DNA of 26,758 nucleotides from Clostridiales bacterium (lineage in GTDB: Bacteria > Bacillota > Clostridia > Christensenellales > Aristaeellaceae). A model generated the notes under the pieces. The model ran no database searches. It had not been told where the DNA came from and worked only from the letters and a program-made list of their open reading frames with translations. The DNA is taken from NCBI GenBank assembly GCA_015056395.1, contig SVGK01000010.1:1-26758 (forward strand), read 5' to 3'. Shown piece by piece: positions 12,793 through 26,039 of this stretch. Made by a program: the position numbers and the translations under genes. Within the stretch, counting starts at the first letter, position 1. Every line of letters begins with the position of its first letter.

Positions 12793-13345
12793 CAGCGGCG
12801 GCCTCCGGGCCGCCACGCTGTCCATCCGTTCCAGTCTGCGGTCAGTTCGAGGCGAGGAACAGCTTCCAGTCCTCATCTGATATGGAAAACTTGTCGACGA
12901 TCTCCTCGTCCGACCAGCCGGTGGTCAGGCGCAGCTTGCGTATCGTGTCGAAGAGGCTGTTCAAGCGCCCCTCGGCGCGTCCTTCTTCGCGTCCCTCTCT
13001 ACGTCCTTCTTCGCGCCCTTCCTGATAGATATCTTCAATGATGCTGCACATTGCACGTACCCCGTGGCCCCTCCGCAGCGGCGGCCTCCAGGCCGCCACA
13101 CCATCGTCCGTTCCCGCCTGCAATCAGTCCGAGGCGAGGAACAGCTTCCAGTCCTCGCTCGATATGGAGAGCTTGTCGACGATCTCCTCGTCTGACCAGC
13201 CTGTGGTCAGGCGCAGCTTGCGGATCGTGTCGAAGAGGCTGTTCAGGCGCCCCTCGGTGCGTCCTTCTTTGCGTCCCTCTTCGCGTCCTTCTTCGCGTCC
13301 TTCTTCGCGCCCCTCCTGATAGATATCTTCCATGATCTTGCACAT
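12793..13345. repeat. Two tandem ~270-284-bp direct repeats (~88% identity) spanning the 3' end of the Rpn-type gene plus its downstream GGCGGCC-n4-GGCCGCC hairpin
   Basis: Copy 1 is ~12793-13060 and copy 2 is ~13077-13345. Both begin CAGCGGCGGCCTCCRGGCCGCCAC and contain ...CGAGGCGAGGAACAGCTTCCAGTCCTC... Confidence 0.85.
12842..13051 (-). pseudogene. Duplicated C-terminal fragment (~69 aa) of the adjacent Rpn/YhgA-type nuclease gene
   Basis: MCSIIEDIYQEGREEGRREGREEGRAEGRLNSLFDTIRKLRLTTGWSDEEIVDKFSISDEDWKLFLASN is ~85% identical to the last ~70 aa of the 13124..13996 product. It arises from a 284-bp tandem DNA duplication. Confidence 0.75.
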
Positions 13346-13996
13346 TTCAAGCGCCCCCTTTGGGTCGTCCTTATAATACCCGCTTCGTTCCGCCATCTCC
13401 TCGTACAGCATATCCCCGGGATCGCTGCACAGGAAATCGTGCATCAGCTTTCCCAGCGCGTCGTCGCCCCTGTACTGGCCGTTGACATACAGTATGTGTT
13501 CGCGGTCGTCGAAGGGCGCGCCGGTGCCCAGGTTGATGCGCTCGACCGGATAAAGCCCCTTCCCCATGCGGAACACGTCGTGCTCCGTGATGAATATGAC
13601 ATAGGTCTCCGGCAGCGCCCTGAAGGGCTGTCCCGCGCTCAGAGCTTCGATGTCCATCGCGGCTGAGTGGTACCGGGCGCGCTCCGGCTCGGCGCCCTCG
13701 TCCGCGCGCTGCACCTCGATGTCATACTGCCTGTGCTTGCTGTCCGTGGCGTGCACGTCCAGCGTCACGGACCGTGCGCCGGCCAGCCGCTTCATGTCGC
13801 GCTGCGTCTCCGCGCCGGTGAGCACCAGGTCGTCCTTGTCCAGTATGATCCTCAGCACGAACTGCGCAAACGGCAGATCGTCGCGGAACATGCAGCGCAT
13901 GAACACGTCGTCAATGGGACGCAGCTGCGCAAGCCGCGCAAGGCTCCGCTCCGTGAACTGCCTGCGCCAGGCCTCGTCGATGTTCATGGCGCACAC
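13124..13996 (-). CDS. Rpn/YhgA-like PD-(D/E)XK family recombination-promoting nuclease / putative transposase
   Basis: The D...IEVQ core (LDVHATDSKHRQYDIEVQRA) is typical of the transposase_31/PDDEXK families. The C-terminal EGREEGREEGREEGRKEGRTEGR repeats and the LNSLFDTIRKL...WSDEEI tail are hallmarks of this family. Confidence 0.75.
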   Translation of the reverse strand: MCAMNIDEAWRRQFTERSLARLAQLRPIDDVFMRCMFRDDLPFAQFVLRIILDKDDLVLTGAETQRDMKRLAGARSVTLDVHATDSKHRQYDIEVQRADEGAEPERARYHSAAMDIEALSAGQPFRALPETYVIFITEHDVFRMGKGLYPVERINLGTGAPFDDREHILYVNGQYRGDDALGKLMHDFLCSDPGDMLYEEMAERSGYYKDDPKGALEMCKIMEDIYQEGREEGREEGREEGRKEGRTEGRLNSLFDTIRKLRLTTGWSDEEIVDKLSISSEDWKLFLASD

Positions 13997-14162
13997 CTCC
14001 TCTGCTCCGAATCTATTATATCATGGATACGAACGGCGCGCAAGGTGTTCGCAGCGCGTTGCGTTTCGGTTAATTGCATTCGGATGGTATAGACCCCTTG
14101 AAATCAGCGTCCACATAGATTATACTAATGTAAATAGGTATGCCCTGAAGGAGAGTGAGCCC

Positions 14163-15923
14163 ATGAGCAAGTTCTTTATCGAATGCCCGGCCTGTCACCG
14201 CTACAGCCAGGCCTCCACGTCCCTGTTTGCCAGCCGGCGCATACGCTGCGCCTGCGGCTTCACCATCGACGTCAAGGCGGACCGCATCACCACGCGCGTC
14301 TGTCCGTCCTGCGGCAATTCCATCGCTTTCGACCAGGCGAAGGGCGCGACGGCGAAGTGCCCCATATGCAGGGCGCAGCTGCTCACGCCGGAGAGCATGA
14401 ACAGCCTGGTCACGTTCGCGTGCCGCACCTGCGGCTGCACGCTGCAGGCGAACAAGGGCGCGCAGCAGATCACGTGCCCCCTGTGCGACACGGTCAACGA
14501 CGTGCAGGCCGAGGTCAAGCTCGCGGCGCAGCGCGCGCAAGGCACGCCGCAGGTCATACGCTACGAGGGCGACAACATGACGTTCGTCTGGCGGCACCCC
14601 GCGACGGACTTCGTGATGGGCTCGCAGCTGATCGTGCACGAGAGCCAGGAGGCTCTGTTCTTCCGCAACGGCGAGGCGCTGGATTCGTTCCCAGCGGGAC
14701 GCTACACGCTCGAGACCGCGACGCTGCCGCGCATGAATGGCCTGCTGCCGCTGCCTGTGCAGGGACAGCCCTTCCACGCGGAGGTCTTCTTTGTCAACCT
14801 GACCACGCAGATGGGCATCAAATGGGGCACCAACAGCAAGGTCGGACTGTTCGACCCGGCCAGCGGCCTGCATGTGGAGCTGGGCGCGTCCGGCAGCTTC
14901 AACCTGCGCGTGACGGACCCGCGGCGGCTCGTGATCCGCCTGGTCGGCACCACGGACAGGCTGACGCAGGAGCAGGTGTTCGGGCACGACGGCGGCTACT
15001 TCCGCACGCTGGTCATGACGAAGGTCAAGGCGAACCTCGCGCGCGTGATCAGGGAGAACCGCATATCCGTGCTGGAGCTGGACCAGCACATCGACGTGAT
15101 CGGCGAGGCGCTGCGCACGCAGATCAACGCGGAGTTAGAGGAATACGGCATGACCATGCCTGAGTTCTACGTCGCCAACATACTGACGCCGGACGACGAC
15201 CCGAACTTCAGGCGCATGAAGCAGCAGCACGCGGAGCTCTACCTGCGCACGCGCGAGGAGGAGATCCGTAAGGCCGAGGCGGAGGCGGCGTTCGAGCGCA
15301 AGGCGGTCGAGGCGCAGACGCAGGCGCGCATGAAGGTGATCGGCGCGCAGGGCGAAGCCGACGCCATGCGCATACAGGCGCAGGCCCAGGCGGACGCCTA
15401 CCGCATGCAGGCGGAGGCGGAGGCGCAGGAGATGCGCATGAAGGGCTACACCTACCAGCAGGAGACGACGCGCCAGGTCGCCACGGAGGCGGTCAAAAAC
15501 GGCGGCGCGGGCGGCTTGGCCGGCGACGTGACGGGCGTGCTGGGTGGCGCGATGCAGCTGGGCCTCGGCCTGGGCGCGGCCGGCAGCGTGATCGGCATGA
15601 CGAAGGACGCGCTGGGCGCGATGAACGCGGCCGTGCCGCAGGCGCCCGCCGCGACGGACGACGGCTGGACGTGCGAGGGCTGCGGCTGCACGGGCAACAC
15701 GACGAACTTCTGCCCGAACTGCGGGCGGCGGCGGCCCGAGGCAGGCTGGACGTGCCCGGGCTGCGGGCAGGCGGGCATCACGACGAACTTCTGTCCGAAC
15801 TGCGGGAGGCGACGGCCCGAGGCGGGCTGGACGTGTCCCGGCTGCGGGCTCACGGGCATCACGACGAACTTCTGTCCGAACTGCGGCGCCAAGAAGGGTG
15901 AGAAGGGAGATGTCGAGGGATGA
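14163..15923 (+). CDS. SPFH/Band-7 (YdjI-like, Band_7_1) domain protein fused to multiple zinc ribbons
   Basis: RBS GAAGGAGAG at 14148-14156, then ATG at 14163; the ORF-track start at 13650 is an unsupported extension. The N-terminus has three CxxC...CxxC pairs. The central segment (IRYEGDNMTFVWRHPATDFVMGSQLIVHESQEALFFRNGEALDSFPAGRYTLETATLP...FHAEVFFVNLTTQMGIKWGT) resembles B. subtilis YdjI-type SPFH. An A/E/Q-rich coiled coil, a Gly-rich linker, and three GWTCPGCG..TTNFCPNCG zinc-ribbon repeats follow. Confidence 0.8.
   Translation: MSKFFIECPACHRYSQASTSLFASRRIRCACGFTIDVKADRITTRVCPSCGNSIAFDQAKGATAKCPICRAQLLTPESMNSLVTFACRTCGCTLQANKGAQQITCPLCDTVNDVQAEVKLAAQRAQGTPQVIRYEGDNMTFVWRHPATDFVMGSQLIVHESQEALFFRNGEALDSFPAGRYTLETATLPRMNGLLPLPVQGQPFHAEVFFVNLTTQMGIKWGTNSKVGLFDPASGLHVELGASGSFNLRVTDPRRLVIRLVGTTDRLTQEQVFGHDGGYFRTLVMTKVKANLARVIRENRISVLELDQHIDVIGEALRTQINAELEEYGMTMPEFYVANILTPDDDPNFRRMKQQHAELYLRTREEEIRKAEAEAAFERKAVEAQTQARMKVIGAQGEADAMRIQAQAQADAYRMQAEAEAQEMRMKGYTYQQETTRQVATEAVKNGGAGGLAGDVTGVLGGAMQLGLGLGAAGSVIGMTKDALGAMNAAVPQAPAATDDGWTCEGCGCTGNTTNFCPNCGRRRPEAGWTCPGCGQAGITTNFCPNCGRRRPEAGWTCPGCGLTGITTNFCPNCGAKKGEKGDVEG
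15657..15899 (+). repeat. Three near-perfect 81-bp (27-aa) tandem repeats inside the SPFH gene, each encoding one C4 zinc ribbon
   Basis: GGCTGGACGTG recurs at 15663, 15744 and 15825 with an exact 81-nt period. The encoded units are GWTC[EP]GCGxxGxTTNFCPNCGRRRPEA. Confidence 0.9.
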
Positions 15924-16579
15924 AGAACGGTAAGGGCCATTTCCTTGCGCTTTGGGCCATCGCGCTGGCGCTGTTCGTGGTGCTGGCGCTGGCGATACCT
16001 TTTGCGCGGACGCCGGTGTACTGGATCGGCTTTTGCGCGACGCTTTTGATGTTCGCCGTAGTGACGGCGGCATTCATGCGCGCGTTCAGGGACGGGCGGT
16101 CGCTCGAGAGCGCGCTGCTGGGCTGGCCCATATTCAAGTGCGGCGCACTGGCGCTCGGCGCGCAGCTGATCGCGGGCTTTGCGCTGATGGCGCTGGCGCG
16201 CGCGCTCGGCGTCACCGCGGCTGTGGTGATCGAGATCGTGCTGTTCGGCTGCGCGGCGGCGGTGCTGGTCGCGCGGGACGCGGCGCGCGCCGCTGTCGAG
16301 CAGACGGAGGCGCGCGTGCGGGATGACACCGGCGCGTGGAAGGCACTGCGCGCGCAGGCGAGCGCGTTCGCGGCGGCGGCCGGCAGCGACGCGGCGCGCA
16401 AACTCGCCGACGACATACGCTTTGCGGACCCGAGGCCCACGGACATGGACGGCGATATCGCGCAGGCCGTGGGCGCGCTGGGCGCGGACGCGGCGGACGA
16501 GGATATCGAGCAGGTCAGAAAGATGGTCGGAAGGAGAAACGCGCTGGCGAAGGCGGGGAAGAAGGAAATGCAGAATTGA
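15920..16579 (+). CDS. Small membrane protein (about 4 TM helices, Ala-rich cytoplasmic C-terminus), translationally coupled to the SPFH gene
   Basis: ATGA overlap with the upstream stop (15920-15923). Hydrophobic segments are HFLALWAIALALFVVLALAI, VYWIGFCATLLMFAVVTAAF, GALALGAQLIAGFALMALA and AAVVIEIVLFGCAAAVLV. Confidence 0.75.
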   Translation: MKNGKGHFLALWAIALALFVVLALAIPFARTPVYWIGFCATLLMFAVVTAAFMRAFRDGRSLESALLGWPIFKCGALALGAQLIAGFALMALARALGVTAAVVIEIVLFGCAAAVLVARDAARAAVEQTEARVRDDTGAWKALRAQASAFAAAAGSDAARKLADDIRFADPRPTDMDGDIAQAVGALGADAADEDIEQVRKMVGRRNALAKAGKKEMQN

Positions 16580-16613
16580 TAATTCAGAATTCAGAATTAA
16601 GAATTAAGAATGG
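16580..16613. repeat. AT-rich heptamer microsatellite (AATTCAG x2, AATTAAG x2) directly after the stop codon
   Basis: taATTCAGAATTCAGAATTAAGAATTAAGAATgg contains two EcoRI sites. It is an AT island in an otherwise >65% GC context. Confidence 0.7.
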
Positions 16614-16664
16614 ATAGCCCGGAGACCCGAACGTGCGGGTCCCCCGCAATGCCCCGAACGACCT

Positions 16665-17655
16665 CGTAGCGGTGGCGTCTACGCCGCCATATCCCTCGCC
16701 ATTCCCGCCAGGGAATGCGAAACGACCGAAGGACCTCATCCGGCCCTCACGGGCCACCTTCCCCAAAGGGCAACGCTGTCAACTTTGAACAAGGACATAA
16801 CAAATCATAGATATACGTCGTCCAGCGGGAATGGCGGCTGATAGCCGCCGCTACGGATCACATGATCTGCAAATGTAACCGCATAAACGGCACGGGATCG
16901 TCTTAAGTTGACAGCGTTGCCCCAAAGGGGAAGGCAAGGTCCGCCATTCAATATACGATCCGCCGTCGTACCTCGCCCATCGGTCCCGAGGACGATGATC
17001 AACAGACAAAGAGACGATCGGCCCACGAATGTACCCATATCACAGCTCGGCACGCCCGATCCTCGCCCGGAGCGGCGTCCTGTCGACGCCGTCTCCGCGA
17101 CAAAACCTCGAGCCGTCCGCTCCTATCCGACCTTGATCCCCGAGCTGACGTGGCCCGTTGGACCGCGTACAGCACAGCCACCGCGCCGAAGGCGCGGCGC
17201 GAAGCGTCCTTGAGGGTCCTCATGCTGTCTGCTAAACTGAAGCACACGGCGGCGTGATAAGGTTTCGTTTCCAACCTCTCACCCGTCGCCGTGGCCTCAT
17301 ACAAGCAGACAGCAGGAGGTTCATCAAGGATGGCGGCCGGACGAGGTATCCGTCCCCCCCAACGACCCCGTAGCGGCGGCTATCAGCCGCCACATCCCTC
17401 GCCATTCCCAACAGACAAGCCGAAACGACCGAAGGACCTCATCCGGCCCTCACGGGCCACCTTCCCCAAAGGGCAACGCTGTCAACTTAAGGCGATCCCG
17501 TTTTGGTTGTGCAGCTACATCTGCAGATCGTGTGATCCGTAGCGGCGGCTATCAGCCGCCATTTCCGACGCACAACGTATACCCGTGATTTGTTATGGTC
17601 TTGTTAAAAGTTGACAGCGTTGCCCCAGAGGGGAAGGCAAGGTCCGTCATTTGAA
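16665..17655. mobile_element. Non-coding MITE-like composite repeat: ~115-bp inverted arms (16827-16943 and 17455-17566) around a ~500-bp core, with extra partial copies on both sides
   Basis: The left arm and the reverse complement of the right arm align at ~85% (GGAATGGCGGCTGATAGCCGCCGCTACGGATCACAYGATCTGCA...CTTAAGTTGACAGCGTTGCCC...). Direct repeats 16665-16786 and 17369-17488 share an identical 66-bp block at 16721-16786 and 17424-17488. There is a further fragment at 17609-17652. The only ORFs here are spurious GC-frame ORFs. Confidence 0.6.
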
Positions 17656-17791
17656 TACAAGATCGACCGCACCCCCCAGAATCACGGCCAGCGTTCGATC
17701 TCCGGCCAATAATTCCGAAACACCCGGAGGGTGTCTAGCGAAGCGTCGATTCCGAATTACCCCATCCCCCCACGACCAAAGGAGCAACACC

Positions 17792-20700
17792 ATGATCATC
17801 TTCAAATGCAAATCCTGCGGCGGCGACCTGTCCTTCGAGCCGGGCGCGAGCGTCGCGGAATGCCCCTACTGCGGCGTGAAGCAGACGCTGCCGAAGCTGG
17901 ACGACGACAAGCGCGCGAACCTCTACGACCGCGCCAACCACTTCCGCCGCCAGAACGAGTACGACAAGGCCATGGCGATCTACGAGCAGATACTGTCCGA
18001 GGACCGCACGGACGCCGAGGCGTACTGGTCGCTGGTGCTGTGCCGCTACGGCATAGAGTACGTCGAGGACCCCGTTACGCGCAAGCGCGTGCCCACGGTC
18101 AACCGCGCGCAGTACGCCTCCGTGCTGGCGGACGACGACTACAAGTCGGCGCTTCAATACGCGGACCCTGCGCAGCGCGTGCTCTATGAATCGGAGGCGG
18201 AGGCCATCGCGGAGATACAGCGCGGCATATTGGACATCTCGCGCAAGGAGCAGCCCTTCGACGTGTTCATCTGCTACAAGGAGACGGACGCGAACGGCCG
18301 CCGCACGCCGGACAGCGTGCTGGCGACGGACCTGTACCACCAGCTGACGAAGGAGGGCTTCCGGGTATTCTTCTCGCGCATCACGCTGGAGGACAAGATC
18401 GGCACGGCGTACGAGCCGTACATATTCGCGGCGCTGAACAGCGCGAAGGTGATGGTGGTGCTGGGCACGAAGCCGGAGTACTTCAACGCGGTGTGGGTGA
18501 AGAACGAGTGGAGCCGCTACCTTGCGCTGATACGCGCGGGCGCGGAGAAGGTGCTGGTGCCCGCGTACCGCGACATGGACCCCTATGACCTGCCGGAGGA
18601 GTTCGCGCACCTGCAGGCGCAGGACATGGGCAAGCTGGGCTTCATGCAGGACCTGATACGCGGCATCAAGAAGCTGACCGCGAAGGACGATCCGAAGCCC
18701 GCGCGGCCCGCAGCGCAGACCGTGGTCGCGGGCCCCGGCGCGAACATAGAGAACCTGATGAAGCGCGCGCGGCTCTTCATGGAGGACGGCAACTGGATGA
18801 GCGCCACGGAGTACCTGGACAAGGTGCTGGACGAGAATGCCGAGTACGCGCCCGCCTACGCGGGCAAGGTGCAGGTCTCGCTGCGCATGAAGCGGGAGGC
18901 CGAACTGGCCGGGAGCCTCACGGACTACGAAGGCGACCCCGACTGGCAGAGGGCGCTGCGCTTTGCCGCGCCCGAACAGCGGAAGGTTTACGAGGGGTAC
19001 GCGGCGCAGGCGGCGGAGGCGCGGGAGGAGAAGCGCAAGGAAGACATCTATGCCGGAGCGGCCGCCATGCTCGCAAAGGCCGATACGCCCGCCGCGTGCC
19101 GCGCGGCGAAGGCGGAATTTGCGAAGATCCCGCTGCACAGGGACGCGGGCGCGAAGGTGCGCGAGTGCGAGGAGAAGGCGAGGCGCATCGAATACGACGC
19201 GCTCCTCACCAGATACAAGGACGTGGCCAGGGACTATAACAGCGTCTCAAAGGCCGAGAGGCTTGAGGCGCTTGCGGCGGAGTTCGATGCGTTCAGGGGC
19301 ACCGACATGCCCGGGCGCTGCCGCGCGGAGGCGGAGCAGTGCCGCGCGGCGCTCTATGACGAGGCCGCCGAGGCCATGCGGAAGAGCGCGCAGGCACAGC
19401 AATTCGAAAAGGCGGCGGAGCTGTTCAGACGGCTGGGCGCCTACAGGGACGCGCAGGCGCAGGCGCGAAAGTGCTCGGACAGCGCGGCGGAAGTCAAACG
19501 CGCCGACGAGCTGCGCGCCGCGCGTGAACGCGAGGAGCAGGAGCGCAGGATAGAGAAGGAGCGCGCCAGACAGAAGAGGAACAGGGTGCTCCTGTCGTTG
19601 CTGGTGCTCGTGCTGGCGGCGGGCGCGCTGGCCTATCTGTACGTGCTGAAGCCCATGATGGCCTATGACAAGGCGGTTGGGGCGATGGAGGCGGGAAACT
19701 ACGACGAGGCGACGGCGCTGTTTGAAGAGATGGGAGACTACAGGGACGCCGCTGTACAGGCGCAGGAGAGCCAATACAGGAAGGGTCTGTCGTTGATGAA
19801 CAGCGGAAAATACGATGCGGCTGTAGAGGTGTTCAACAGTATCGGCAGTTACGGCGATAGTTCCGCAAAGGCAAAACAGGCACAGGCAGACAAATTGTTT
19901 GATGCGGGATATTACGCCGAAGCGTATGCGGCATACATCGCATTGGATTCGGAGTATCAAACACATAAAGACGATTACGAGCAGATGTACGTCGATGCAT
20001 CGAGGCTGTTTGCGGATGGTGATTATGATGGCGCCAGCATGGCGTTTAATTCGATCGCGGGATACAAGGATTCAACAACACAGGCAAAGGAGAGCCAATA
20101 CCAGAAGGGCCTGTCGTTGATGAACAGTGGGCAATATGATGCAGCTGTAGAGGTATTCAACAGTATCAGCAGTTACGGCGATAGTTCTACGAGAGCAAAA
20201 CAGGCACAGGCAGATGAATTGTTTGCTGCGGGGAATTACGCCGAAGCATATATGGTTTACGCCGCATTGGATACGGGATATCAAACACACAAAGACGATT
20301 ACGAGCAAATGTACGTCGATGCATCGAAGCAATTTGCGGATGGTGATTATGACGGCGCCAGCAAGGCGTTTAATTCAATTGCAGGATACAAGGATTCAGT
20401 AACACAGGCAAAGGAGAGCCAGTACCAGAAGGGCCTGTCGTTGATGAACAGCGGGCAATATCATGCAGCTGCGGTGGCATTCAAGAGCCTTGGCAGTTAC
20501 AACGACGCCGCGACACAAGCGCAGGAGAGCCAGTACCAGAATGGCCTGTCGTTGATGAAAATTGGGCAATACGATGCGGCTGTGGAGGTATTCAAGAGCC
20601 TTGGCAGTTACAACGACGCTGCGACACAGGCGCAGGAGAGCCAATATCGGAAAGGCATGTCGTTGATGGAGAGCGAGGAGTATGATGCGGCTACGGAGGT

Positions 20701-21484
20701 GTTCGATGGCCTCAGTAATTACAACGACGCCGCGACAAAAGCGCAGGAGAGCCAGTACCTGAAGGCGGCGGCGCTGAACACAGCGGAGAATTACGATGAA
20801 GCTTATCTGGTCTATGCGTCCATAGCCGGCTATAAGGATGTTGACAGCATCGTCAAAAACGACGGTAATATTTCAGCAGCAGCCTGGCGCGCGCAGTTAT
20901 ACGTCGGCAATACGGTGACCTTCGGCGCGTACGACCAGGACGGCGATACCTCAAACGGCGCGGAGGCCATCGAATGGATCGTGCTGGCGAACGACGGCAA
21001 GACGGCGACGCTGATTAGCAGATACGGTCTGGACGCGAAGCCCTACAACACTGAACAAGAATATGTGACCTGGGAGACATGCACGCTGCGGAAATGGCTG
21101 AACGGCGATTTCCTGAACGCGGCCTTTTCGGCGGACGAGAGGGCGAAGCTTGAAACGGTCAAGGTCACGGCGGACAGGAATCCCAAGAATTTTATCGATC
21201 CCGGCAACGACACGCAGGACAAGGTCTTCCTGCTGTCCATAGACGAGGCGAACAAGTATTTCAGCTCTGATTCGGACCGCATGTGCAAGCCCACGAAGAC
21301 GGCAGTCAAGAATGGAGCAAGCACGAACAGCTCGGGTGCGTGCTGGTGGTGGCTGCGGTCGCCCGGCTACTATCCTAGCCTCGTCGCATACGTCCGCGAC
21401 GACGGTTCGGTCTACTACGACGGCTGCGGTGTCTACAACGGCGATCTCGCTGTTCGGCCGGTCGTGGTGCTGCGGCTTTCATAG
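17792..21484 (+). CDS. Large single-pass membrane protein (1230 aa): N-terminal zinc ribbon, TPR-like region, TIR domain, helical repeat region, TM helix, ~12 degenerate 37-38-aa extracytoplasmic repeats, DUF6273-like C-terminal domain
   Basis: RBS AAAGGAG at 17778-17784 and ATG at 17792 (MIIFKCKSCGGDLSFEPGASVAECPYCG); the ORF-track start at 17651 is an unsupported extension. The TIR region at ~18254-18680 reads QPFDVFICYKETD...EGFRVFFS...VMVVLGTKPEYFNAVWVKNEWSRYLAL, with the conserved W-x3-E at 18494-18508. The TM helix RVLLSLLVLVLAAGALAYLYVL lies at ~19585-19650. Repeats fit the pattern G.Y.DA..QA.ESQY.KG. The C-terminus (TVTFGAYDQDGD...IEWIVLANDGKTATLISRYGLD...VTWETCTLRKWLN...KVFLLSIDEA...ACWWWLRSPG...AVRPVVVL) matches my recollection of DUF6273. 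Confidence 0.8.
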   Translation: MIIFKCKSCGGDLSFEPGASVAECPYCGVKQTLPKLDDDKRANLYDRANHFRRQNEYDKAMAIYEQILSEDRTDAEAYWSLVLCRYGIEYVEDPVTRKRVPTVNRAQYASVLADDDYKSALQYADPAQRVLYESEAEAIAEIQRGILDISRKEQPFDVFICYKETDANGRRTPDSVLATDLYHQLTKEGFRVFFSRITLEDKIGTAYEPYIFAALNSAKVMVVLGTKPEYFNAVWVKNEWSRYLALIRAGAEKVLVPAYRDMDPYDLPEEFAHLQAQDMGKLGFMQDLIRGIKKLTAKDDPKPARPAAQTVVAGPGANIENLMKRARLFMEDGNWMSATEYLDKVLDENAEYAPAYAGKVQVSLRMKREAELAGSLTDYEGDPDWQRALRFAAPEQRKVYEGYAAQAAEAREEKRKEDIYAGAAAMLAKADTPAACRAAKAEFAKIPLHRDAGAKVRECEEKARRIEYDALLTRYKDVARDYNSVSKAERLEALAAEFDAFRGTDMPGRCRAEAEQCRAALYDEAAEAMRKSAQAQQFEKAAELFRRLGAYRDAQAQARKCSDSAAEVKRADELRAAREREEQERRIEKERARQKRNRVLLSLLVLVLAAGALAYLYVLKPMMAYDKAVGAMEAGNYDEATALFEEMGDYRDAAVQAQESQYRKGLSLMNSGKYDAAVEVFNSIGSYGDSSAKAKQAQADKLFDAGYYAEAYAAYIALDSEYQTHKDDYEQMYVDASRLFADGDYDGASMAFNSIAGYKDSTTQAKESQYQKGLSLMNSGQYDAAVEVFNSISSYGDSSTRAKQAQADELFAAGNYAEAYMVYAALDTGYQTHKDDYEQMYVDASKQFADGDYDGASKAFNSIAGYKDSVTQAKESQYQKGLSLMNSGQYHAAAVAFKSLGSYNDAATQAQESQYQNGLSLMKIGQYDAAVEVFKSLGSYNDAATQAQESQYRKGMSLMESEEYDAATEVFDGLSNYNDAATKAQESQYLKAAALNTAENYDEAYLVYASIAGYKDVDSIVKNDGNISAAAWRAQLYVGNTVTFGAYDQDGDTSNGAEAIEWIVLANDGKTATLISRYGLDAKPYNTEQEYVTWETCTLRKWLNGDFLNAAFSADERAKLETVKVTADRNPKNFIDPGNDTQDKVFLLSIDEANKYFSSDSDRMCKPTKTAVKNGASTNSSGACWWWLRSPGYYPSLVAYVRDDGSVYYDGCGVYNGDLAVRPVVVLRLS
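19766..20413 (+). repeat. Two tandem 324-bp (108-aa) intragenic direct repeats (~88% identity) within the extracytoplasmic repeat region of the TIR protein gene
   Basis: GAGAGCCAATAC recurs at 19766, 20090 and 20414 with an exact 324-nt spacing. This stretch (~19690-20830) has visibly lower GC (~50%) than the 5' half of the gene (~70%). Confidence 0.85.
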
Positions 21485-21607: not shown

Positions 21608-22492
21608 ATGAACGGAAGACCAGGCATCCTCTTTCTCGGCAACGGCATCAACCGACTGTTCAATGACGATCCGTGGGACAAGATGATCCGCGACCAGCTC
21701 GCCCTGTCGGGCCATCGCTACACGTGGGAACAGATCAGGAACATACCGCCCACGATGCAGATCGTACTTGCGACGAACGATCAGGTCGACGCCCGCCTCA
21801 AGCAGATCGCAAAGGAGCTGGAACAACAGCGCATACAGGACGAACGCGCCGCTTTCCTGCGCAGGCTCGCCGGTATGGATGTCGACTGCGTAATGACGGC
21901 GAATTATTCTCTCGAGATCGAAAAGGCATTCGGGCTGAAGGAAAGCTGCGCCTCCTACAGGCGGCGCCTGAACAGGACCATCGAAGCAAACGGCCTGCGC
22001 GACGATTTTCGTCTGTACCAATATTATCCCCTCGAGCGGGCGGACGGAAGGACGATGCCGCTTTGGCACGTGCACGGCGACATCGCGAAGCCTCGCTCCA
22101 TGATCATGGGCCATTACTACTACGCAAGGCATCTGCGCGAGATACAGGACCGCGTCGGCGTTATGATGCGCGTCGTTCGGGGCTGTGAACGGGCCGGCTC
22201 GACGTTCCATCCGCAAAGCTGGGTCGATGCGTTTCTGATAAGCGACGTGTTCATGCTCGGCTTTGGGCTGTATCTGTGTGAGTCCGATTTGTGGTGGCTG
22301 CTCTGCTGCAAGAAGCGCAACTTCCCCGATACGAAGGTGTTCTTCTACGGCGAGGCGACGAATGATGTCCGGCTGCTGCTGGAGGCCTATGGCGGCGAAA
22401 CGCAGGACGAGATCAGCCGGATCGGAGAAGACGGCTATATGCGCTTTTATGAAAGGGCGATCGCGGATATCGAACGAAAGCTGGAACATTAG
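21608..22492 (+). CDS. Stand-alone SIR2-like (SIR2_2 / DSR-ThsA-type sirtuin fold) protein, 294 aa, no additional sensor domain
   Basis: The N-terminal ILFLGNGINRLFNDDPWDKMI fits the SIR2_2 consensus lFlGAGxS...PxW..L. VMTANYSLEIEKA fits TTNYDxLlE (catalytic Asn retained). LWHVHGDIAKPRSMIMGHYYY fits iyKlHGs...lvlt.edY (catalytic His retained). DVFMLGFGLYLCESDLWWLL fits llfiGYSl.D. RBS AAAGAGGTG lies upstream. The gene is 124 bp downstream of, and co-directional with, the TIR gene. Confidence 0.65.
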   Translation: MNGRPGILFLGNGINRLFNDDPWDKMIRDQLALSGHRYTWEQIRNIPPTMQIVLATNDQVDARLKQIAKELEQQRIQDERAAFLRRLAGMDVDCVMTANYSLEIEKAFGLKESCASYRRRLNRTIEANGLRDDFRLYQYYPLERADGRTMPLWHVHGDIAKPRSMIMGHYYYARHLREIQDRVGVMMRVVRGCERAGSTFHPQSWVDAFLISDVFMLGFGLYLCESDLWWLLCCKKRNFPDTKVFFYGEATNDVRLLLEAYGGETQDEISRIGEDGYMRFYERAIADIERKLEH

Positions 22493-23983: not shown

Positions 23984-24096
23984 GGGGATGCACTTCCTTT
24001 CTGGTCGATGCGGTTATGAGGTGCATATCAGCTTTCGAACGGTGATGTATAATAGAAATGCAAATCGGACAAGTGGTGTTGGCTGATTTTGCATGT

Positions 24097-24140
24097 GGGC
24101 CTGTTCCCTTCGCGAGAGGGAACGGGCCTTCTTATTTCTT
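24097..24140 (+). terminator. Second copy of the GGGCCTGTTCCCTTCGCGAGAGGGAACGGGCC stem-loop plus TTCTTATTTCTT, abutting the stop of the minus-strand secreted-protein gene
   Basis: Identical 32-bp hairpin and similar flank (ATTTTRCATGWG upstream) to the copy at 23604. Confidence 0.5.
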
Positions 24141-24689
24141 GGTCGGGGCAACAACAAGCAAATAACTTTCGATGTATTCGGGGTTCCAGATGTAATAGGT
24201 GGCATAGCGGCCAATGTGATAGGGGATACGCGCGCCGGGCGTCAAGATGGATCCTGCATTTCTGAAAACATTCATAGTCTTCTCATAGAACCCTTTTGAA
24301 TCGGACATTATGGACAAAACCTGATCATGCGATATATTCGGGAAACTTGTGTACTCAAGCGCAGAATACAGGGCCATGAGCTTGAAGGCGTCTTCAACAG
24401 ACAAGTCGTCAGTGGATATGTTGACGTTCAACGGAAAATCTACAGACAATGTAGCGAAAGATGAAGCATCGTACTGAATCGTAATCATGTCATAGCCCAT
24501 CGCGGAAGTGGCATCGTTCACATCGGCAAAAACTGGGTCAGCTTTGAACGGATAGCCATACAGCGAACACCATCCAGCATATGTGGCTGCAATCCTTGAA
24601 GGCGTATCAAAGCCGGACGAAGCATCTGCGAGAGCGAAACCGGACAATATGAGTGCGAGCAAGAGCAGTATAACAACAAGTCTTTTCAT
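24132..24689 (-). CDS. Secreted hypothetical protein with N-terminal signal peptide (185 aa), lower-GC gene
   Basis: ATG at 24689 preceded by GGAGGTG with a 7-nt spacer. MKRLVVILLLLALILSGFALADAS is a signal peptide. The ORF-track start at 24734 lacks an RBS. GC is ~45-50% versus >65% for flanking DNA. Confidence 0.7.
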   Translation of the reverse strand: MKRLVVILLLLALILSGFALADASSGFDTPSRIAATYAGWCSLYGYPFKADPVFADVNDATSAMGYDMITIQYDASSFATLSVDFPLNVNISTDDLSVEDAFKLMALYSALEYTSFPNISHDQVLSIMSDSKGFYEKTMNVFRNAGSILTPGARIPYHIGRYATYYIWNPEYIESYLLVVAPTKK

Positions 24690-24747
24690 GTGAAACACCT
24701 CCATTAGGTCCATATTCCGTGACGGCACGTTCATGGATTCAGGATAA

Positions 24748-25131
24748 CTATGCCGTTATGGACGCGCCATCTTCCTTTTGCATGTCCGGGTTGCCTGCGA
24801 AGGCGCGGGCTGTGTTCAGGAGGGTGGTTTGGGCGTCGTGGTTCAGGGAACGGAACAGGGAAAGAAGCTCAGATTCCTGTTCTGTAAGCGGAACGGATAA
24901 TTCATATTTTGGGGGTTCAGAGTAGAATTCAGCGATGCTGTTGATTCCATAGATCTCACACAGGCGAAAGAGCATATCAGCGTCCGGCTGGCCCCGGCCA
25001 TGCTCCCAGCCCGATACGGTCTTATCGCTTTTACCGATCATTTCGCCAACTTCTCTTGCTGTCAAGCCTGCCATTATTCGGAAATCATGCAGCTTGGCGG
25101 CGAGGGCTTTTCTGATTTCTTGTTCTTTCAC
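24748..25131 (-). CDS. XRE-family (Cro/CI-type) helix-turn-helix transcriptional regulator, 127 aa
   Basis: GTG start at 25131 preceded by GAGGTGA. The HTH reads LTAREVGEMIGKSDKTVSGWEHGRGQPDADMLFRLCEIY, and there is a C-terminal extension. Confidence 0.85.
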   Translation of the reverse strand: MKEQEIRKALAAKLHDFRIMAGLTAREVGEMIGKSDKTVSGWEHGRGQPDADMLFRLCEIYGINSIAEFYSEPPKYELSVPLTEQESELLSLFRSLNHDAQTTLLNTARAFAGNPDMQKEDGASITA

Positions 25132-25150
25132 GGAATCTCACCTCAAAAGA

Positions 25151-25179
25151 AGTATACAACCATTTTAGCTATATTGCAA
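25151..25179 (-). promoter_or_regulatory. Sigma-70-type promoter for the minus-strand XRE regulator (-35 TTGCAA, 17-nt spacer, -10 TATACT)
   Basis: Reverse complement of 25151-25179 reads TTGCAAtatagctaaaatggttgTATACT. Located ~20 nt upstream of the RBS. Confidence 0.55.
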
Positions 25180-25219
25180 GACAAATCCTTAAATAATGAG
25201 AATTAATTGATAAAATGGC

Positions 25220-25248
25220 TTGACAGTCTATGATTTTAAGAGTATTAT
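25220..25248 (+). promoter_or_regulatory. Divergent sigma-70 promoter (-35 TTGACA 25220-25225, 17-nt spacer, -10 TATTAT 25243-25248) flanked by three TTAAGAG/CTCTTAA operator-like repeats
   Basis: Consensus -35 with near-consensus -10. TTAAGAG recurs at 25236-25242 and 25271-25277, and an inverted CTCTTAA at 25262-25268 brackets the -10. Confidence 0.65.
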
Positions 25249-25291
25249 ATATCCACGCTCTTAAAATTTAAGAGATTGAGAGGTGGTTAAT

Positions 25292-25507
25292 GTGTATCAC
25301 ATCAAAGATGTCGCTACTGTAGTTGAGGAAAGACGCAGTGAATTTGGTATGACGGTTCGCGCATTGTCTCAAAAGAGCGGCGTCAGCGAAGGCGCTTTGT
25401 ATAGGATCCTTGGCGGCCATTGAAAGATGACCGCATCGGAACTGCTGTCGCTCTCGGAGGTATTGCATTTGACGTTCGATGACTATCGATCTGAAGAGGC
25501 GGTGTGA
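25292..25507 (+). pseudogene. Small XRE-family HTH gene interrupted by an in-frame TGA (25421-25423); Cro-like partner of the divergent regulator
   Basis: GTG at 25292 after RBS AGAGGTGG. Translation is MYHIKDVATVVEERRSEFGMTVRALSQKSGVSEGALYRILGGH-*-KMTASELLSLSEVLHLTFDDYRSEEAV*. Both halves together make one canonical HTH_XRE domain in a single frame. Confidence 0.55.
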
Positions 25508-25509
25508 AT

Positions 25510-25761
25510 ATGGCGCGGATGAGCGTTGAGGAGCTGGCGGCGCTTCCGGGCGTCGCGGTCGGAACGAAAGAAGCCGCGGCGGTGCTGGGGTGCGACAGGT
25601 ATTCGCTGACCATCGCCGCGAAGTGCGGGATGCTGGGGCTGCCGCACTTCTTCTCCGGGAACAGGCTCAAGATCAGCAAGGCGGCGCTGCTTGAATTCTG
25701 CGGCGCGCACGGCGCGACGGGTGAAGTGCCCATCGTGCCGGGAAAGGGCGTGAAGGCGTGA
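25510..25761 (+). CDS. Excisionase/MerR-like helix-turn-helix (HTH_17, Xis-type) DNA-binding protein, 83 aa
   Basis: MARMSVEELAALPGVAVGTKEAAAVLGCDRYSLTIAAKCGMLGLPHFFSGNRLKISKAALLEF. The ATG at 25510 immediately follows the upstream stop. Confidence 0.65.
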   Translation: MARMSVEELAALPGVAVGTKEAAAVLGCDRYSLTIAAKCGMLGLPHFFSGNRLKISKAALLEFCGAHGATGEVPIVPGKGVKA

Positions 25762-25997
25762 AGATCATCGCGGTGGACTTTGACGGGACGCTGTGCGAGA
25801 GCGCTTGGCCGGACATCGGCAAGGCGCACTGGGGCGTGATCAACCAGCTCGTGAAGCGGCAGGCCGAGGGCGACAAGATCATACTTTGGACGTGCCGGAC
25901 GGGAAAGCAGCTGGAGGAGGCCGTCAAGTGGTGCACAAACCACGGGATACGGTTCAAAGCCGTGAAGCGACGCCCCTACGGCGACGCATCATCGTGA
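25758..25997 (+). CDS. Small HAD-motif protein (DxDGT motif I; phage-associated type), 79 aa
   Basis: The GTG start overlaps the upstream stop. VKIIAVDFDGTLCESAWPDIG... is HAD motif I, followed by ILWTCRTG (motif II-like Thr). Confidence 0.55.
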   Translation: MKIIAVDFDGTLCESAWPDIGKAHWGVINQLVKRQAEGDKIILWTCRTGKQLEEAVKWCTNHGIRFKAVKRRPYGDASS

Positions 25998-26039
25998 TCG
26001 CGCTAAACCGATCCGATGTATACGCACATATGATTTTGC

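Follow-up and report, generated by a model that had tools for sequence, protein, structure and literature searches.

The SPFH gene examined here and the 4TM membrane-protein gene that overlaps it are two parts of a conserved three-part module, the third part of which consists of one or more TIR genes. The window, i.e., the whole stretch of DNA that was analysed, comprises 26,758 nucleotides. SPFH proteins are universal membrane scaffolds, whose bacterial clients are mostly unknown, and TIR domains, found across life, are central to immune signalling and NAD cleavage. The three-part module is abundant in Clostridia of gut and rumen, the defence systems of which are poorly explored, and it is apparently undescribed. 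What it suggests is a system of immunity or surveillance linked to the membrane, not a PspA stress operon, and our main reading, to which we assign a probability of about one half, is that of a mobile, membrane-associated TIR-based conflict (defence) system with SPFH and 4TM as a shared membrane platform or effector.

A conserved module of SPFH, 4TM and TIR genes

The module is composed of a single SPFH gene, the 4TM gene straight after it and at least one ZnR-TPR-TIR gene on the same strand, situated before or after the pair, which occurs once per locus. In 65 of 69 related loci 4TM was found directly downstream of SPFH (median gap 15 nt), and the earlier sequence-only reading, which had named conservation of the membrane ORF beside SPFH homologues as a check on the pair, was borne out in this respect. 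A same-strand TIR homologue was present in all 34 loci flanked by 4 kb or more on each side (34/34), upstream of the pair in 13, downstream in 16 and on both sides in five; one TIR copy was counted in 23 loci, two in seven and three in four, and ORF clustering yielded up to five TIR-cluster ORFs in locus L045. Seen from the TIR side, SPFH and/or 4TM accompanied the anchor in 13 of 14 metagenome loci whose two flanks each reach 5 kb or more and in 66 of 79 overall. Independent gene calls together with Pfam confirmed Band_7_1, an unannotated protein of ~213-231 aa and TIR_2. When the ORFs of 80 related loci were clustered, only SPFH, 4TM and TIR proved to be conserved, any other family being confined to eight loci or fewer, and the flanks of the module differed everywhere and were non-syntenic.

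Module genes often overlap or are spaced by 30 nt or less, and the gap between 4TM and TIR is below ~100 nt in many related loci. The module extends over several orders of Clostridia and the Erysipelotrichales and includes three SPFH architecture classes; Allobaculum stercoricanis DSM 13633 and Neglectibacter timonensis SN17 are cultured carriers. In the window (Table 1) 4TM and TIR are parted by a 1.2-kb gap with MITE/REP-like repeats, the direct copies of which lie 703 nt apart and have inverted ends, and their end motif occurs four times in the gap and nowhere else in the window; the gap is probably an insertion in this genome. The strictly linked ZnR-TPR-TIR gene lies just beyond the stretch that the sequence-only reading had covered and had escaped it. 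With one or more TIR genes linked, the likely biology changes from what that reading had supposed. Nothing relevant was found in the literature that brings SPFH or Band 7 proteins together with TIR domains, Thoeris or phage defence, and a survey of TIR systems from 2025 does not mention SPFH and offers no precedent for an SPFH/4TM partner (bioRxiv 10.64898/2025.12.03.692087).

Table 1. Features of the module and its surroundings in the window
Feature	Position (nt)	Strand	Basis
Promoter-like site TTGAAA-17-TATACT	14098..14126	+	Consensus scan 10/12; pattern match only
SPFH gene (Band_7_1, YdjI-type; 586 aa; without TM anchor)	14163..15923	+	Translation
Three N-terminal Cys4 zinc ribbons, residues 8-31, 47-69, 87-108	14184..14486	+	Cys positions
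Band_7_1 SPFH core, residues 142-345	14586..15197	+	Pfam PF13421
Long A/E/Q-rich helix, residues 347-426	15201..15440	+	AF2 model
Gly-rich, weakly hydrophobic linker VLGGAMQLGLGLGAAGSVIGM	15498..15659	+	pLDDT, KD19
Three C-terminal zinc ribbons	15663..15886	+	81-nt tandem repeat; Pfam DZR E 3e-4
4TM protein, 219 aa	15920..16579	+	ATGA overlap with SPFH stop; hydropathy; AF2
Gap with two tandem MITE/REP-like repeat copies	16580..17788	.	Direct repeats, inverted ends
ZnR-TPR-TIR single-pass membrane protein, 1230 aa	17792..21484	+	Pfam, RBS, homologues
TIR gene: TIR_2	18263..18631	+	
TIR gene: Glu E239	18506..18508	+	
TIR gene: TM helix	~19589..19648	+	
TIR gene: DUF6273	21008..21472	+	
SIR2_2-like protein, 294 aa	21608..22492	+	Pfam SIR2_2 E 7.1e-5

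Properties of the encoded proteins

The SPFH gene is preceded by the RBS GGAGAG at 14150-14155, 7 nt from the start. Its product matches Pfam Band_7_1 over residues 142-345 (E 7.5e-37; 127.4 bits against a cut-off of 24), close to the residues ~130-330 at which the SPFH core had been expected, and residues 236-375 also match Pfam Band_7. Foldseek related the AF2 model, which is only moderately confident (pLDDT 67), with a probability of 1.0 to erlin, stomatin, prohibitin, flotillin, HflK/C and QmcA, with TM-scores of 0.53-0.73 against isolated SPFH domains; the alignments with SPFH proteins that form cages extended over 260-300 columns. The long A/E/Q segment, correctly recognised before, was modelled as a single helix of 80 residues and is, to judge from the model, the counterpart of the wall-forming helix in SPFH cages. 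It is followed by the Gly-rich segment, likewise already noted, which is disordered at residues 440-499 (pLDDT <50) and contains the invariant residues G467, G478 and M479 in an alignment of 40 SPFH homologues. Since the highest KD19 hydropathy is only 1.51, located inside this linker, SPFH has no classical TM helix. A phmmer search of PDB sequences gave no useful relative, erlin-1 appearing at E 0.15, and searches of NCBIfam and PADLOC with the SPFH protein returned nothing. The best match, Rv2887 (phmmer E 1.4e-4), was rejected as a PDB relative, since it runs only from within the SPFH core through the A/E-rich helix (query residues 313-425) and was treated as compositional.

Six zinc ribbons, three at each end, had been assigned to the SPFH protein and were recovered as Cys4 ribbons, whose cysteines are situated at residues 8, 11, 29, 31 / 47, 50, 66, 69 / 87, 90, (92), 105, 108 and at 504, 507, (509), 517, 520 / 531, 534, 544, 547 / 558, 561, 571, 574. 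The count of three N-terminal CxxC pairs was too low, as there are six knuckles (five CxxC and one CxC); three remains right as the number of ribbons. The N-terminal ribbon cysteines are invariant among 40 homologues (12/12), the ribbons were modelled as beta-hairpins (pLDDT 60-80), and the five CxxC and one CxC are retained in ~70 of 80 genomes; some SPFH variants of the module are devoid of these ribbons. The DNA of the C-terminal ribbons forms a tandem repeat (TRF: period 81 nt, 2.8 copies, 88% matches), and the number of C-terminal CxxC motifs ranges from 2 to 8 across complete homologues. The decoration with ribbons had been called unusual, a view that did not hold: it is standard within the clade, more than 120 clusters at 58-72% identity aligning over 94-100% of the SPFH query. 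Sister variants of the module carry SHOCT as an end domain, and the six-ribbon SPFH is one of three interchangeable SPFH architectures within the module.

The start of 4TM overlaps the SPFH stop as ATGA, and the coupled four-helix protein proposed earlier was confirmed by four hydrophobic peaks (KD19 2.93, 2.09, 1.94 and 2.62) and by four TM helices in the AF2 model (mean pLDDT 85). These helices span residues ~8-118; the cytosolic domain behind them is all-helical and has an invariant D170-P171 in the motif FRYSDPVS, and a tail ERNxxCKxxK is also conserved. While a word-indexed search gave five relatives, so that profile and exhaustive HMMER searches were needed, the exhaustive search of a library of 1.84 billion proteins revealed a family of 3994 representatives at 50% identity. 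The 4TM protein itself matched no Pfam, NCBIfam or PADLOC entry and, in the Pfam scans, no TPM domain. For 26 family members Pfam at E <=5 gave scattered hydrophobic noise (tetraspanin, DUF1430 and others) and no consistent family.

The TIR gene, preceded by the RBS AAGGAG at 17779-17784, encodes in this order TIR_2 (E 6.9e-11), a TM helix, TPR-like repeats and DUF6273 (E 7e-28). The N-terminal 300 aa are highly conserved among 71 homologues, and this head shows 75-84% identity across metagenomes, which is unusually high for an immune gene and would also fit a housekeeping role. The C-termini are variable, with RCC1 in 24 of 69, DUF6273 in 11 of 69 and also Sel1, BspA-type LRR and TPR; one membrane-anchored member possesses a BspA-type LRR ectodomain. 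A single TM helix is present in 44 of 71 TIR paralogues and missing from ~27; in 38 of the 44, K/R residues are richer on the N-terminal side of the helix, and the TIR protein of the window has seven K/R upstream versus two downstream. All 30 TIR sequences compared share the Glu of the W-x-x-x-E motif; this residue aligns with the WCxxE motif (WCQYE) of the TLR15/2 TIR domain, and among PDB sequences the TIR profile matched TLR15/TLR2 TIR best. The same Glu is the catalytic residue in SARM1 and in plant and bacterial TIRs. TLR TIR domains also have the canonical Glu, yet are not NADases, and an invariant Glu is thus no proof of catalysis; TIR fold and W-x-x-x-E Glu together suggest, at the level of sequence, a potential for NAD cleavage. 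A cloning primer of YdjG encodes MIISYKCPNC and resembles MIIFKCKSCGG of the TIR proteins, a likeness of anecdotal nature.

Genomic setting and possible functions

Downstream of TIR in the window lies the SIR2_2-like gene, whose score of 23.4 bits is just under the cut-off of 24.5. Homologues were found within the module in seven other loci (L045, L085, L023, L142, L015, L087 and L094), that of L023 also weakly matching AbiH and LmuA, and the gene is a recurrent accessory gene of the module. Known or candidate defence genes are inserted in the module repeatedly; besides the SIR2-like ones there are a defence reverse transcriptase, RT_UG26 (E 2.5e-164), a HEPN gene (25.4 bits against a cut-off of 22) and PDC-S31/DUF2971, and DUF4760 is embedded as well; most ORFs inserted in the module are without defence annotation and some are housekeeping genes. 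The context of UG26 RT, PDC-S31, SIR2-like and HEPN genes would suit a generic role in anti-phage defence. An identical SPFH protein was found in two different contexts, beside a resolvase, and in locus L092 an integrase adjoins the module. The module is chromosomal, with some flanks made up of housekeeping genes. Phage records contained no SPFH homologue; on plasmids the SPFH matches were distant Band_7_1 proteins, limited to the core at <=40% identity, and the TIR head had no homologue there; a match on the Butyrivibrio plasmid pNP21 was rejected as a module, its neighbours being different. Viral contigs searched with SPFH gave no SPFH, and the TIR head was detected in only two IMG/VR contigs, both of which also carry SPFH. 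Rfam assigned no RNA family at gathering score anywhere in the window.

Under our main reading, the soluble SPFH protein would, like its solved relatives, build rings or cages by oligomerising via the SPFH core and the long helix, the 4TM partner would hold it at the inner face of the membrane, and translational coupling would keep the SPFH:4TM ratio fixed. The 4TM protein would probably act via its conserved cytosolic helical domain, and the end domains of SPFH, zinc ribbons here and SHOCT in the sisters, may serve as interchangeable adaptors. The TIR proteins would constitute the input and enzymatic arm, with the putative catalytic Glu in a cytosolic ZnR-TPR-TIR head and variable C-termini as sensors, these being soluble or, where a single TM helix precedes them, outside the cell. 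The most likely triggers would be damage to the envelope or an attack by phage, whereupon TIR heads might be released or clustered at the SPFH/4TM platform and cleave NAD+ or make a nucleotide signal, and the response could be executed by the SPFH/4TM pair or by inserted accessory genes (SIR2-like, HEPN). The conflict reading is preferred because of the reciprocal linkage, the SPFH fold, the TIR Glu, the variability of the sensors, the embedded known or candidate defence genes and the mobility. Counted against defence were the conservation of the TIR head, the absence from PADLOC (in PADLOC-DB v2 no model matched a core protein, the sole match being PDC-S66 at E 0.0056 for the TIR protein), the absence of the signal-binding domains SLOG, Macro, SAVED and STING from SPFH and 4TM in Pfam scans, the mostly unannotated inserted ORFs and the pLDDT of 67. 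In a more specific form, proposed tentatively, the module would represent a new class of bacterial TIR immunity: an array of TIR receptors, some with the layout of a TLR, would detect events at the envelope or beyond it, and an SPFH cage docked on 4TM would serve them as membrane platform, regulator or effector. Should this hold, it would be the first case, from any organism, of SPFH scaffolds being functionally tied to TIR signalling.

Alternatively, though this is considered unlikely, the genes could have a housekeeping task in envelope stress or membrane organisation, comparable to that of YdjI/SamI, with SPFH and 4TM stabilising or surveying the membrane and the TIR proteins being non-enzymatic transmembrane receptors or adaptors for signals from the envelope or the environment, with no part in defence. 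The YdjI architecture of SPFH, which had been identified correctly from the start, argues for it (Band_7_1, no TM helix, low-complexity linker, C-terminal ZnR), as do the recruitment of YdjI and sensing of membrane stress by YdjG and YdjH in B. subtilis, the very conserved TIR head, the lack of core proteins in PADLOC and the chromosomal location with some housekeeping flanks. However, PspA, TPM or YdjG-like partners occurred in 0 of 80 loci, flanks are non-syntenic with resolvases or integrases adjacent in several loci, the TIR Glu is invariant, and tandem TIR paralogues with swapped sensors and embedded UG26 RT, PDC-S31, SIR2-like and HEPN genes typify conflict systems.

Strict Thoeris-like signalling, a sharper sub-case of the conflict reading, appears improbable. 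Here the TIR paralogues would make a cADPR-type signal, and a 4TM protein caged or regulated by SPFH would be the signal-activated, membrane-disrupting effector. One conserved non-TIR unit with one to three or more tandem TIR genes is consistent with this, as is the invariant D-P motif in the cytosolic domain of 4TM, which could be a ligand site; moreover, new Thoeris types use TM-helix effectors along with domains of unknown function (bioRxiv 10.64898/2025.12.03.692087), and NCBIfam yielded a weak match to Thoeris type III ThcB4, with 28.6 bits far below the cut-off of 220. Mere co-location of SPFH-4TM and TIR as independent units in a shared defence island or insertion hotspot, to which unrelated defence-type genes between them in some loci and the 1.2-kb repeat insertion in the window might point, is highly improbable in view of the reciprocal co-occurrence (34/34 and 13/14) always on the same strand, the short gaps or overlaps across several orders and three SPFH classes, and the presence of SPFH in both IMG/VR contigs with a TIR head.

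The tight, reciprocal and widespread linkage of SPFH and TIR provides a concrete hypothesis for both fields and also brings in a large unannotated membrane-protein family (~4000 clusters at 50% identity). SPFH biology would gain a new kind of membrane anchor and, in the TIR receptors, a defined set of clients; bacterial immunity would gain a candidate system unlisted in PADLOC v2, and the two cultured carriers make the module testable.

Comparison with known systems

The SPFH protein belongs to the same subfamily (YdjI/SamI Band_7_1, COG4260-type) as that of PspA-YdjGHI (SamGHI), and, like YdjI, it lacks a TM anchor and has a low-complexity linker and a C-terminal zinc ribbon. B. subtilis YdjI reaches the membrane only with membrane partners (PMC8581546), being recruited by the ZnR-bearing YdjG and the TM-bearing YdjH, which sense membrane stress (PMC8581546; bioRxiv 10.64898/2026.02.06.704340). 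In both systems integral membrane partners are co-encoded, and YdjG starts with zinc ribbons as do the TIR proteins (PMC8581546, PMC11237479). In contrast to YdjGHI, the module is devoid of PspA, and its 4TM protein is all-helical and belongs to an unannotated family, whereas YdjH has a TPM domain; the ZnR-bearing partner has TPR, TIR and variable sensors instead of the NTF2/YpeB-like domain of YdjG, and SPFH has three N-terminal ribbons beyond those of YdjI, with C-terminal ribbons that vary in number and SHOCT in their stead in the sisters. The link to PspA membrane-stress operons that had been suggested at first was abandoned, the PspA-YdjGHI operon (PspA; YdjG with two ZnR, NTF2-like domain and TM; YdjH with TPM) being rejected from the ORF clusters of 80 loci, in which family clustering and a Pfam TPM scan revealed no partner of the YdjG or YdjH type.

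With QmcA-YbbJ, FloA/FloT-NfeD and HflK/C-FtsH the module shares an SPFH gene co-encoded with a small multi-TM partner, and its predicted SPFH core and long helix superpose on these cage formers. Unlike the partners of QmcA and FloA/FloT, 4TM lacks the NfeD OB-fold; an NfeD pair was rejected, as the soluble domain is all-helical (pLDDT 85) and no NfeD Pfam match appeared at E <=5. A protease client is also missing, and the SPFH protein here has no TM helix of its own. Protease complexes, also brought up by the sequence-only reading, and with them an HflK/C-FtsH-type cage, were discarded, no conserved protease family being present in the neighbourhoods.

In layout, animal Toll-like receptors resemble the membrane-anchored TIR proteins in having extracellular repeats (TPR-like, Sel1, LRR), one TM helix and a cytosolic TIR, an analogy that implies no homology past the TIR domain; unlike in Toll-like receptors, the order is reversed with TIR N-terminal, the ectodomains are unrelated and ~27 of 71 paralogues are without a TM helix. 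Compared with Thoeris, a ThsA-type effector domain is missing, Thoeris and PADLOC models are unmatched, and the TIR proteins are large, with an N-terminal ZnR-TPR, sensor domains of their own and often a membrane anchor. Nevertheless, the module has in common with Thoeris a TIR with the canonical Glu, SIR2-like genes that are sometimes adjacent, a mobile and variable setting, and the layout of one conserved non-TIR unit, comparable to the Thoeris effector unit, beside one to several tandem TIR paralogues.

The SPFH protein and its membrane partner

The translated ORF of the SPFH gene was assigned by Pfam to Band_7_1 (residues 142-345, E 7.5e-37) and Band_7 (residues 236-375), and its cysteine pattern resolves into three Cys4 ribbons at the N-terminus (8/11/29/31, 47/50/66/69 and 87/90/105/108) and three at the C-terminus (504/507/517/520, 531/534/544/547 and 558/561/571/574), the latter encoded by an 81-nt tandem repeat of 2.8 copies with 88% matches. 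The six ribbons in the title of the sequence-only reading therefore stand, whereas the "three N-terminal CxxC pairs" of its text are too few knuckles. In an AF2 model built with 40 homologues (mean pLDDT 67) the ribbons are predicted as beta-hairpins, followed by the SPFH core, a single 80-residue helix (residues 347-426), a Gly-rich linker modelled as disorder (440-499) and C-terminal ribbons that are well defined; Foldseek matched the model to erlin, stomatin, prohibitin, flotillin, HflK/C and QmcA with probability 1.0. No TM segment was detected in the SPFH protein by hydropathy, the KD19 maximum of 1.51 lying within the Gly-rich linker. Every protein-level feature of the Band_7_1 (YdjI-type) family that was tested was found, and by itself the SPFH protein is a typical representative of a known family.

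The ORF of the four-TM protein (4TM) begins within an ATGA overlapping the SPFH stop. The initial observation of a ribbon-bearing SPFH protein with a coupled membrane ORF was confirmed. Four clear TM peaks appear in hydropathy, and four TM helices are also present in the AF2 model (pLDDT 85), the last of them extending as a long cytosolic helix that is followed by three shorter ones. The membrane ORF is conserved next to SPFH homologues: at 65 of the 69 loci with enough downstream sequence a 4TM homologue follows on the same strand within 400 nt (median gap between matches 15 nt). The family evolves fast (21-53% identity), yet it keeps a distinctive set of motifs, for TM1 ends in IPF, SKxYGFPxFR precedes TM3, TM3 itself contains an invariant Gln, TDNxRD follows TM4, and further on come 'FRYSDPVS' with D170-P171 invariant and the basic tail 'ERNRxCKxxK'.

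The ribbon decoration had been called unusual, but the full-length architecture is not rare, as more than 120 protein clusters with 58-72% identity span 94-100% of the SPFH query, in nearly every case 99%. In an alignment of 40 SPFH sequences none of the 12 cysteines of the N-terminal ribbons varies. Among 80 loci from species-representative genomes, about 70 show five CxxC and one CxC at the SPFH N-terminus and eight lack the N-terminal ribbons wholly; the number of C-terminal CxxC in complete proteins varies from 2 to 8, a spread expected of a tandem repeat. The carriers are chiefly Clostridia MAGs from gut and rumen; the cultured ones are Allobaculum stercoricanis DSM 13633, with the module of SPFH, 4TM and TIR genes at ~723-737 kb of NZ_KB913034.1, and Neglectibacter timonensis SN17. 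A more remote Band_7_1 protein, 40% identical in the core, is encoded on the 20-kb plasmid pNP21 of Butyrivibrio fibrisolvens (locus L083, 6700-7881), where two hypothetical proteins follow, a 4TM or TIR partner is absent, and a type I restriction S subunit, a recombinase and a YoeB/RelB pair lie nearby.

Features of the window in and around the module
Feature	Position	Strand	Remark
Partial duplicate of the PD-(D/E)XK_2 gene	12842-13123	-	C-terminal end; directly downstream of that gene
PD-(D/E)XK_2 'transposase' (Rpn-like) gene	13124-13996	-	just upstream of SPFH gene
Promoter-like site	14098-14126		ahead of SPFH gene
Ribosome-binding site GGAGAG	7 nt 5' of SPFH ORF		
SPFH gene	14163..15923	+	586 aa
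4TM gene	15920..16579		
Composite repeat	16580-17788		
TIR gene	17792..21484	+	1230 aa
In-frame tandem repeats	19756-20763		within TIR gene
SIR2_2-like gene	21608..22492	+	294 aa; directly after TIR gene
Low-GC stretch	24001-26000		
HTH_3 gene	24748..25131	-	

Tight and reciprocal linkage with a TIR gene

The third partner, missed by the sequence-only reading, is the TIR gene just beyond the coordinates of that reading. Its product comprises, in order, a zinc ribbon, a TPR-like unit, TIR_2 (E 6.9e-11), a coiled-coil/TPR-like part, one TM helix (7 K/R before, 2 after), TPR-like repeats and DUF6273. Across the 80 loci, tblastn and ORF clustering found only the SPFH, 4TM and TIR families conserved, with flanking genes differing everywhere. 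SPFH is flanked by 4 kb or more in each direction at 34 loci, and every one of them (34 of 34) carries one to three homologues of the TIR head, the conserved N-terminal part, invariably on the SPFH strand: upstream at 13 loci, downstream at 16, and both upstream and downstream at five. Reciprocally, when the TIR head served as anchor in metagenome contigs, SPFH and/or 4TM were found at 66 of 79 loci, and at 13 of the 14 that have 5 kb or more of flank in each direction. Gene calls made independently, with precomputed Pfam annotation, gave the same layout, in which Band_7_1 and TIR_2 accompany an unannotated protein of 213-231 aa. The linkage of the three families is tight, reciprocal and independent of order.

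The distance between 4TM and TIR genes is 1.2 kb in the window and elsewhere often tens of nucleotides or an overlap, the wider spacing being probably due to a duplicated insertion. The composite repeat in between consists of two tandem copies 703 nt apart with inverted ends (GGGCAACGCTGTCAACTT / AAGTTGACAGCGTTGCCCC), and its end motif occurs four times there and nowhere else in the window; no Rfam match was obtained for it, and it looks like a MITE/REP-like insertion splitting the two genes.

In 71 homologues the first ~300 residues of the TIR family are very conserved (KCKMCGG...C.YCG, RAN.LR..FDKA..YE, GIEYV.DP, DVFICYKE, VFF.RITLEDKLG..YEPYIFAAL and AVWVKNEWSR). An alignment of 30 TIR domains shows no variation at the Glu of WVKNE, and a profile search of PDB aligns this residue with the WCQYE motif in the TIR domain of TLR15/TLR2, a position occupied by the catalytic glutamate in SARM1 and in the TIR NADases of plants and bacteria. 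Conservation is lost in the C-terminal parts (mean column identity 10%), the tails being RCC1 propellers (24/69), DUF6273 (11/69), Sel1 (one), BspA-type LRR (one) and also TPR. A strong TM segment occurs in 44 of 71 proteins and none in 27, many of the latter of RCC1 type; K/R are enriched on the N-terminal side of the helix in 38 of the 44, an arrangement that would make the head cytosolic and the tail extracellular. From the conserved head, the varied tails and these TM counts, the family probably pairs one constant head in the cytosol with sensor-like tails that are swapped, some of them extracellular and others intracellular.

Among the 69 tails (loci L004-L082), the Sel1 match reaches E 1.8e-168 and that of the LRR paralogue (LRR_5) E 1e-111; LRR and TIR together are the domain pair of Toll-like receptors, a likeness in domain content. 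The in-frame tandem repeats of the window's TIR gene (324 nt x2.3 and 111 nt x3.2, 82-86% matches) encode the TPR-like ectodomain repeats and suggest their recent expansion.

At the TIR-anchored metagenome loci the SPFH protein is 33-65%, mostly 35-44%, identical to that of the window and falls into three classes: without N-terminal ribbons and with a C-terminal SHOCT domain (21, including L092, 6500-7651), without N-terminal but with C-terminal zinc ribbons (17), and of the window's own type with three-plus-n ribbons (9). Since 4TM partner and TIR head are unchanged across these classes, the SPFH end domains look swappable, and the ribbons seem to be one terminal adaptor module among several that can be exchanged, rather than central to the mechanism. 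In many of these metagenomes (L084-L162) the TIR head shares 75-84% identity with that of the window, while the linked SPFH often shares only 35-43%, a mosaic which suggests cassette exchange or a far stronger constraint on the TIR head.

Inserted genes and a partly mobile setting

Extra genes recur within the module, nearly always on its strand. At two loci (L025, 1741-2979; L031, 4350-5588) the defence reverse transcriptase of class UG26 (RT_UG26, PADLOC, E 2.5e-164) and a small ZnR-like ORF sit between TIR and SPFH genes; other insertions are DUF2971/PDC-S31 proteins, DUF4760, a HEPN protein (25.4 bits, cut-off 22), a protein of ~370-440 aa with weak SIR2_2 similarity (9 loci), and some unannotated or housekeeping ORFs. 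The SIR2_2-like protein of the window scores just under the cut-off (23.4 bits vs 24.5); homologues of ~300 aa lie inside the module at seven other loci in differing positions, that of L023 with weak matches also to AbiH and LmuA, and the protein is possibly an optional fourth component.

An identical SPFH protein (P0081) was found in two differing contexts (L165 and L166, 9001-17551), each time directly after a resolvase gene among plasmid/IS-type genes (RepA_N, ALP_N, IstB, Fic, RVT_1), and a HEPN protein separates the 4TM gene there from a TIR gene of ~1800 aa; in L092 an integrase adjoins the module. The module was not found in phage records, nor the TIR head in plasmid records, and among 2.9 million viral contigs the TIR head occurs on no more than two, both with SPFH too. 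The setting is non-syntenic and partly mobile, with defence-type insertions.

An all-helical protein of ~150 aa without Pfam match recurs immediately upstream of SPFH (L037, 2742-3212; L046, 5547-5996; L167, 8540-9004, here overlapping the SPFH start; and others); one member bears a putative HEPN-like R-x4-H string (RNPYIH). In the window the PD-(D/E)XK_2 gene has ...IYQEGREEGR...GRLNSLFDTIRKLRLTTGWSDEEIVDK... in common with its partial duplicate. The low-GC stretch (0.49-0.54, vs 0.57-0.69 elsewhere save one bin of 0.52 at 20001-21000) contains the HTH_3 gene and several ORFs without Pfam matches and is possibly foreign DNA.

Interpretation and comparison with known systems

The reading we favour, with a probability of about one half, is a conflict system in which the SPFH protein would oligomerise in the manner of its solved relatives and dock on the 4TM protein, and the TIR proteins would act as sensors and enzymes. 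Docking is proposed by analogy with YdjI, which reaches the membrane only with YdjG and YdjH (PMC8581546). A housekeeping role of the module in envelope stress is rather doubtful: the YdjI architecture of the SPFH protein speaks for it, the locus-to-locus variation of the setting and the defence-type genes against it. A sharper form of the conflict system, Thoeris-like and with 4TM as signal-activated effector, appears unlikely, a recognisable signal-binding domain being absent. In its layout the TIR arm is like Thoeris, yet it does not match the Thoeris or PADLOC models. Mere co-location of the families is highly improbable beside a linkage that holds from both anchors.

A full-text literature search yielded no paper linking SPFH/Band 7 with TIR, Thoeris or anti-phage work, and SPFH is absent from a systematic survey of TIR systems of 2025; this unreported SPFH-4TM-TIR linkage is the most interesting content of the locus. 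The original interpretation holds for the YdjI-type SPFH protein and its partner, but not for a PspA-YdjGHI operon, whose operon-level features did not emerge from ORF clustering of the 80 loci. The module was likewise rejected as an SPFH-NfeD pair and as a protease cage. It falls among SPFH-partner operons and TIR conflict systems, as a variant of both kinds.
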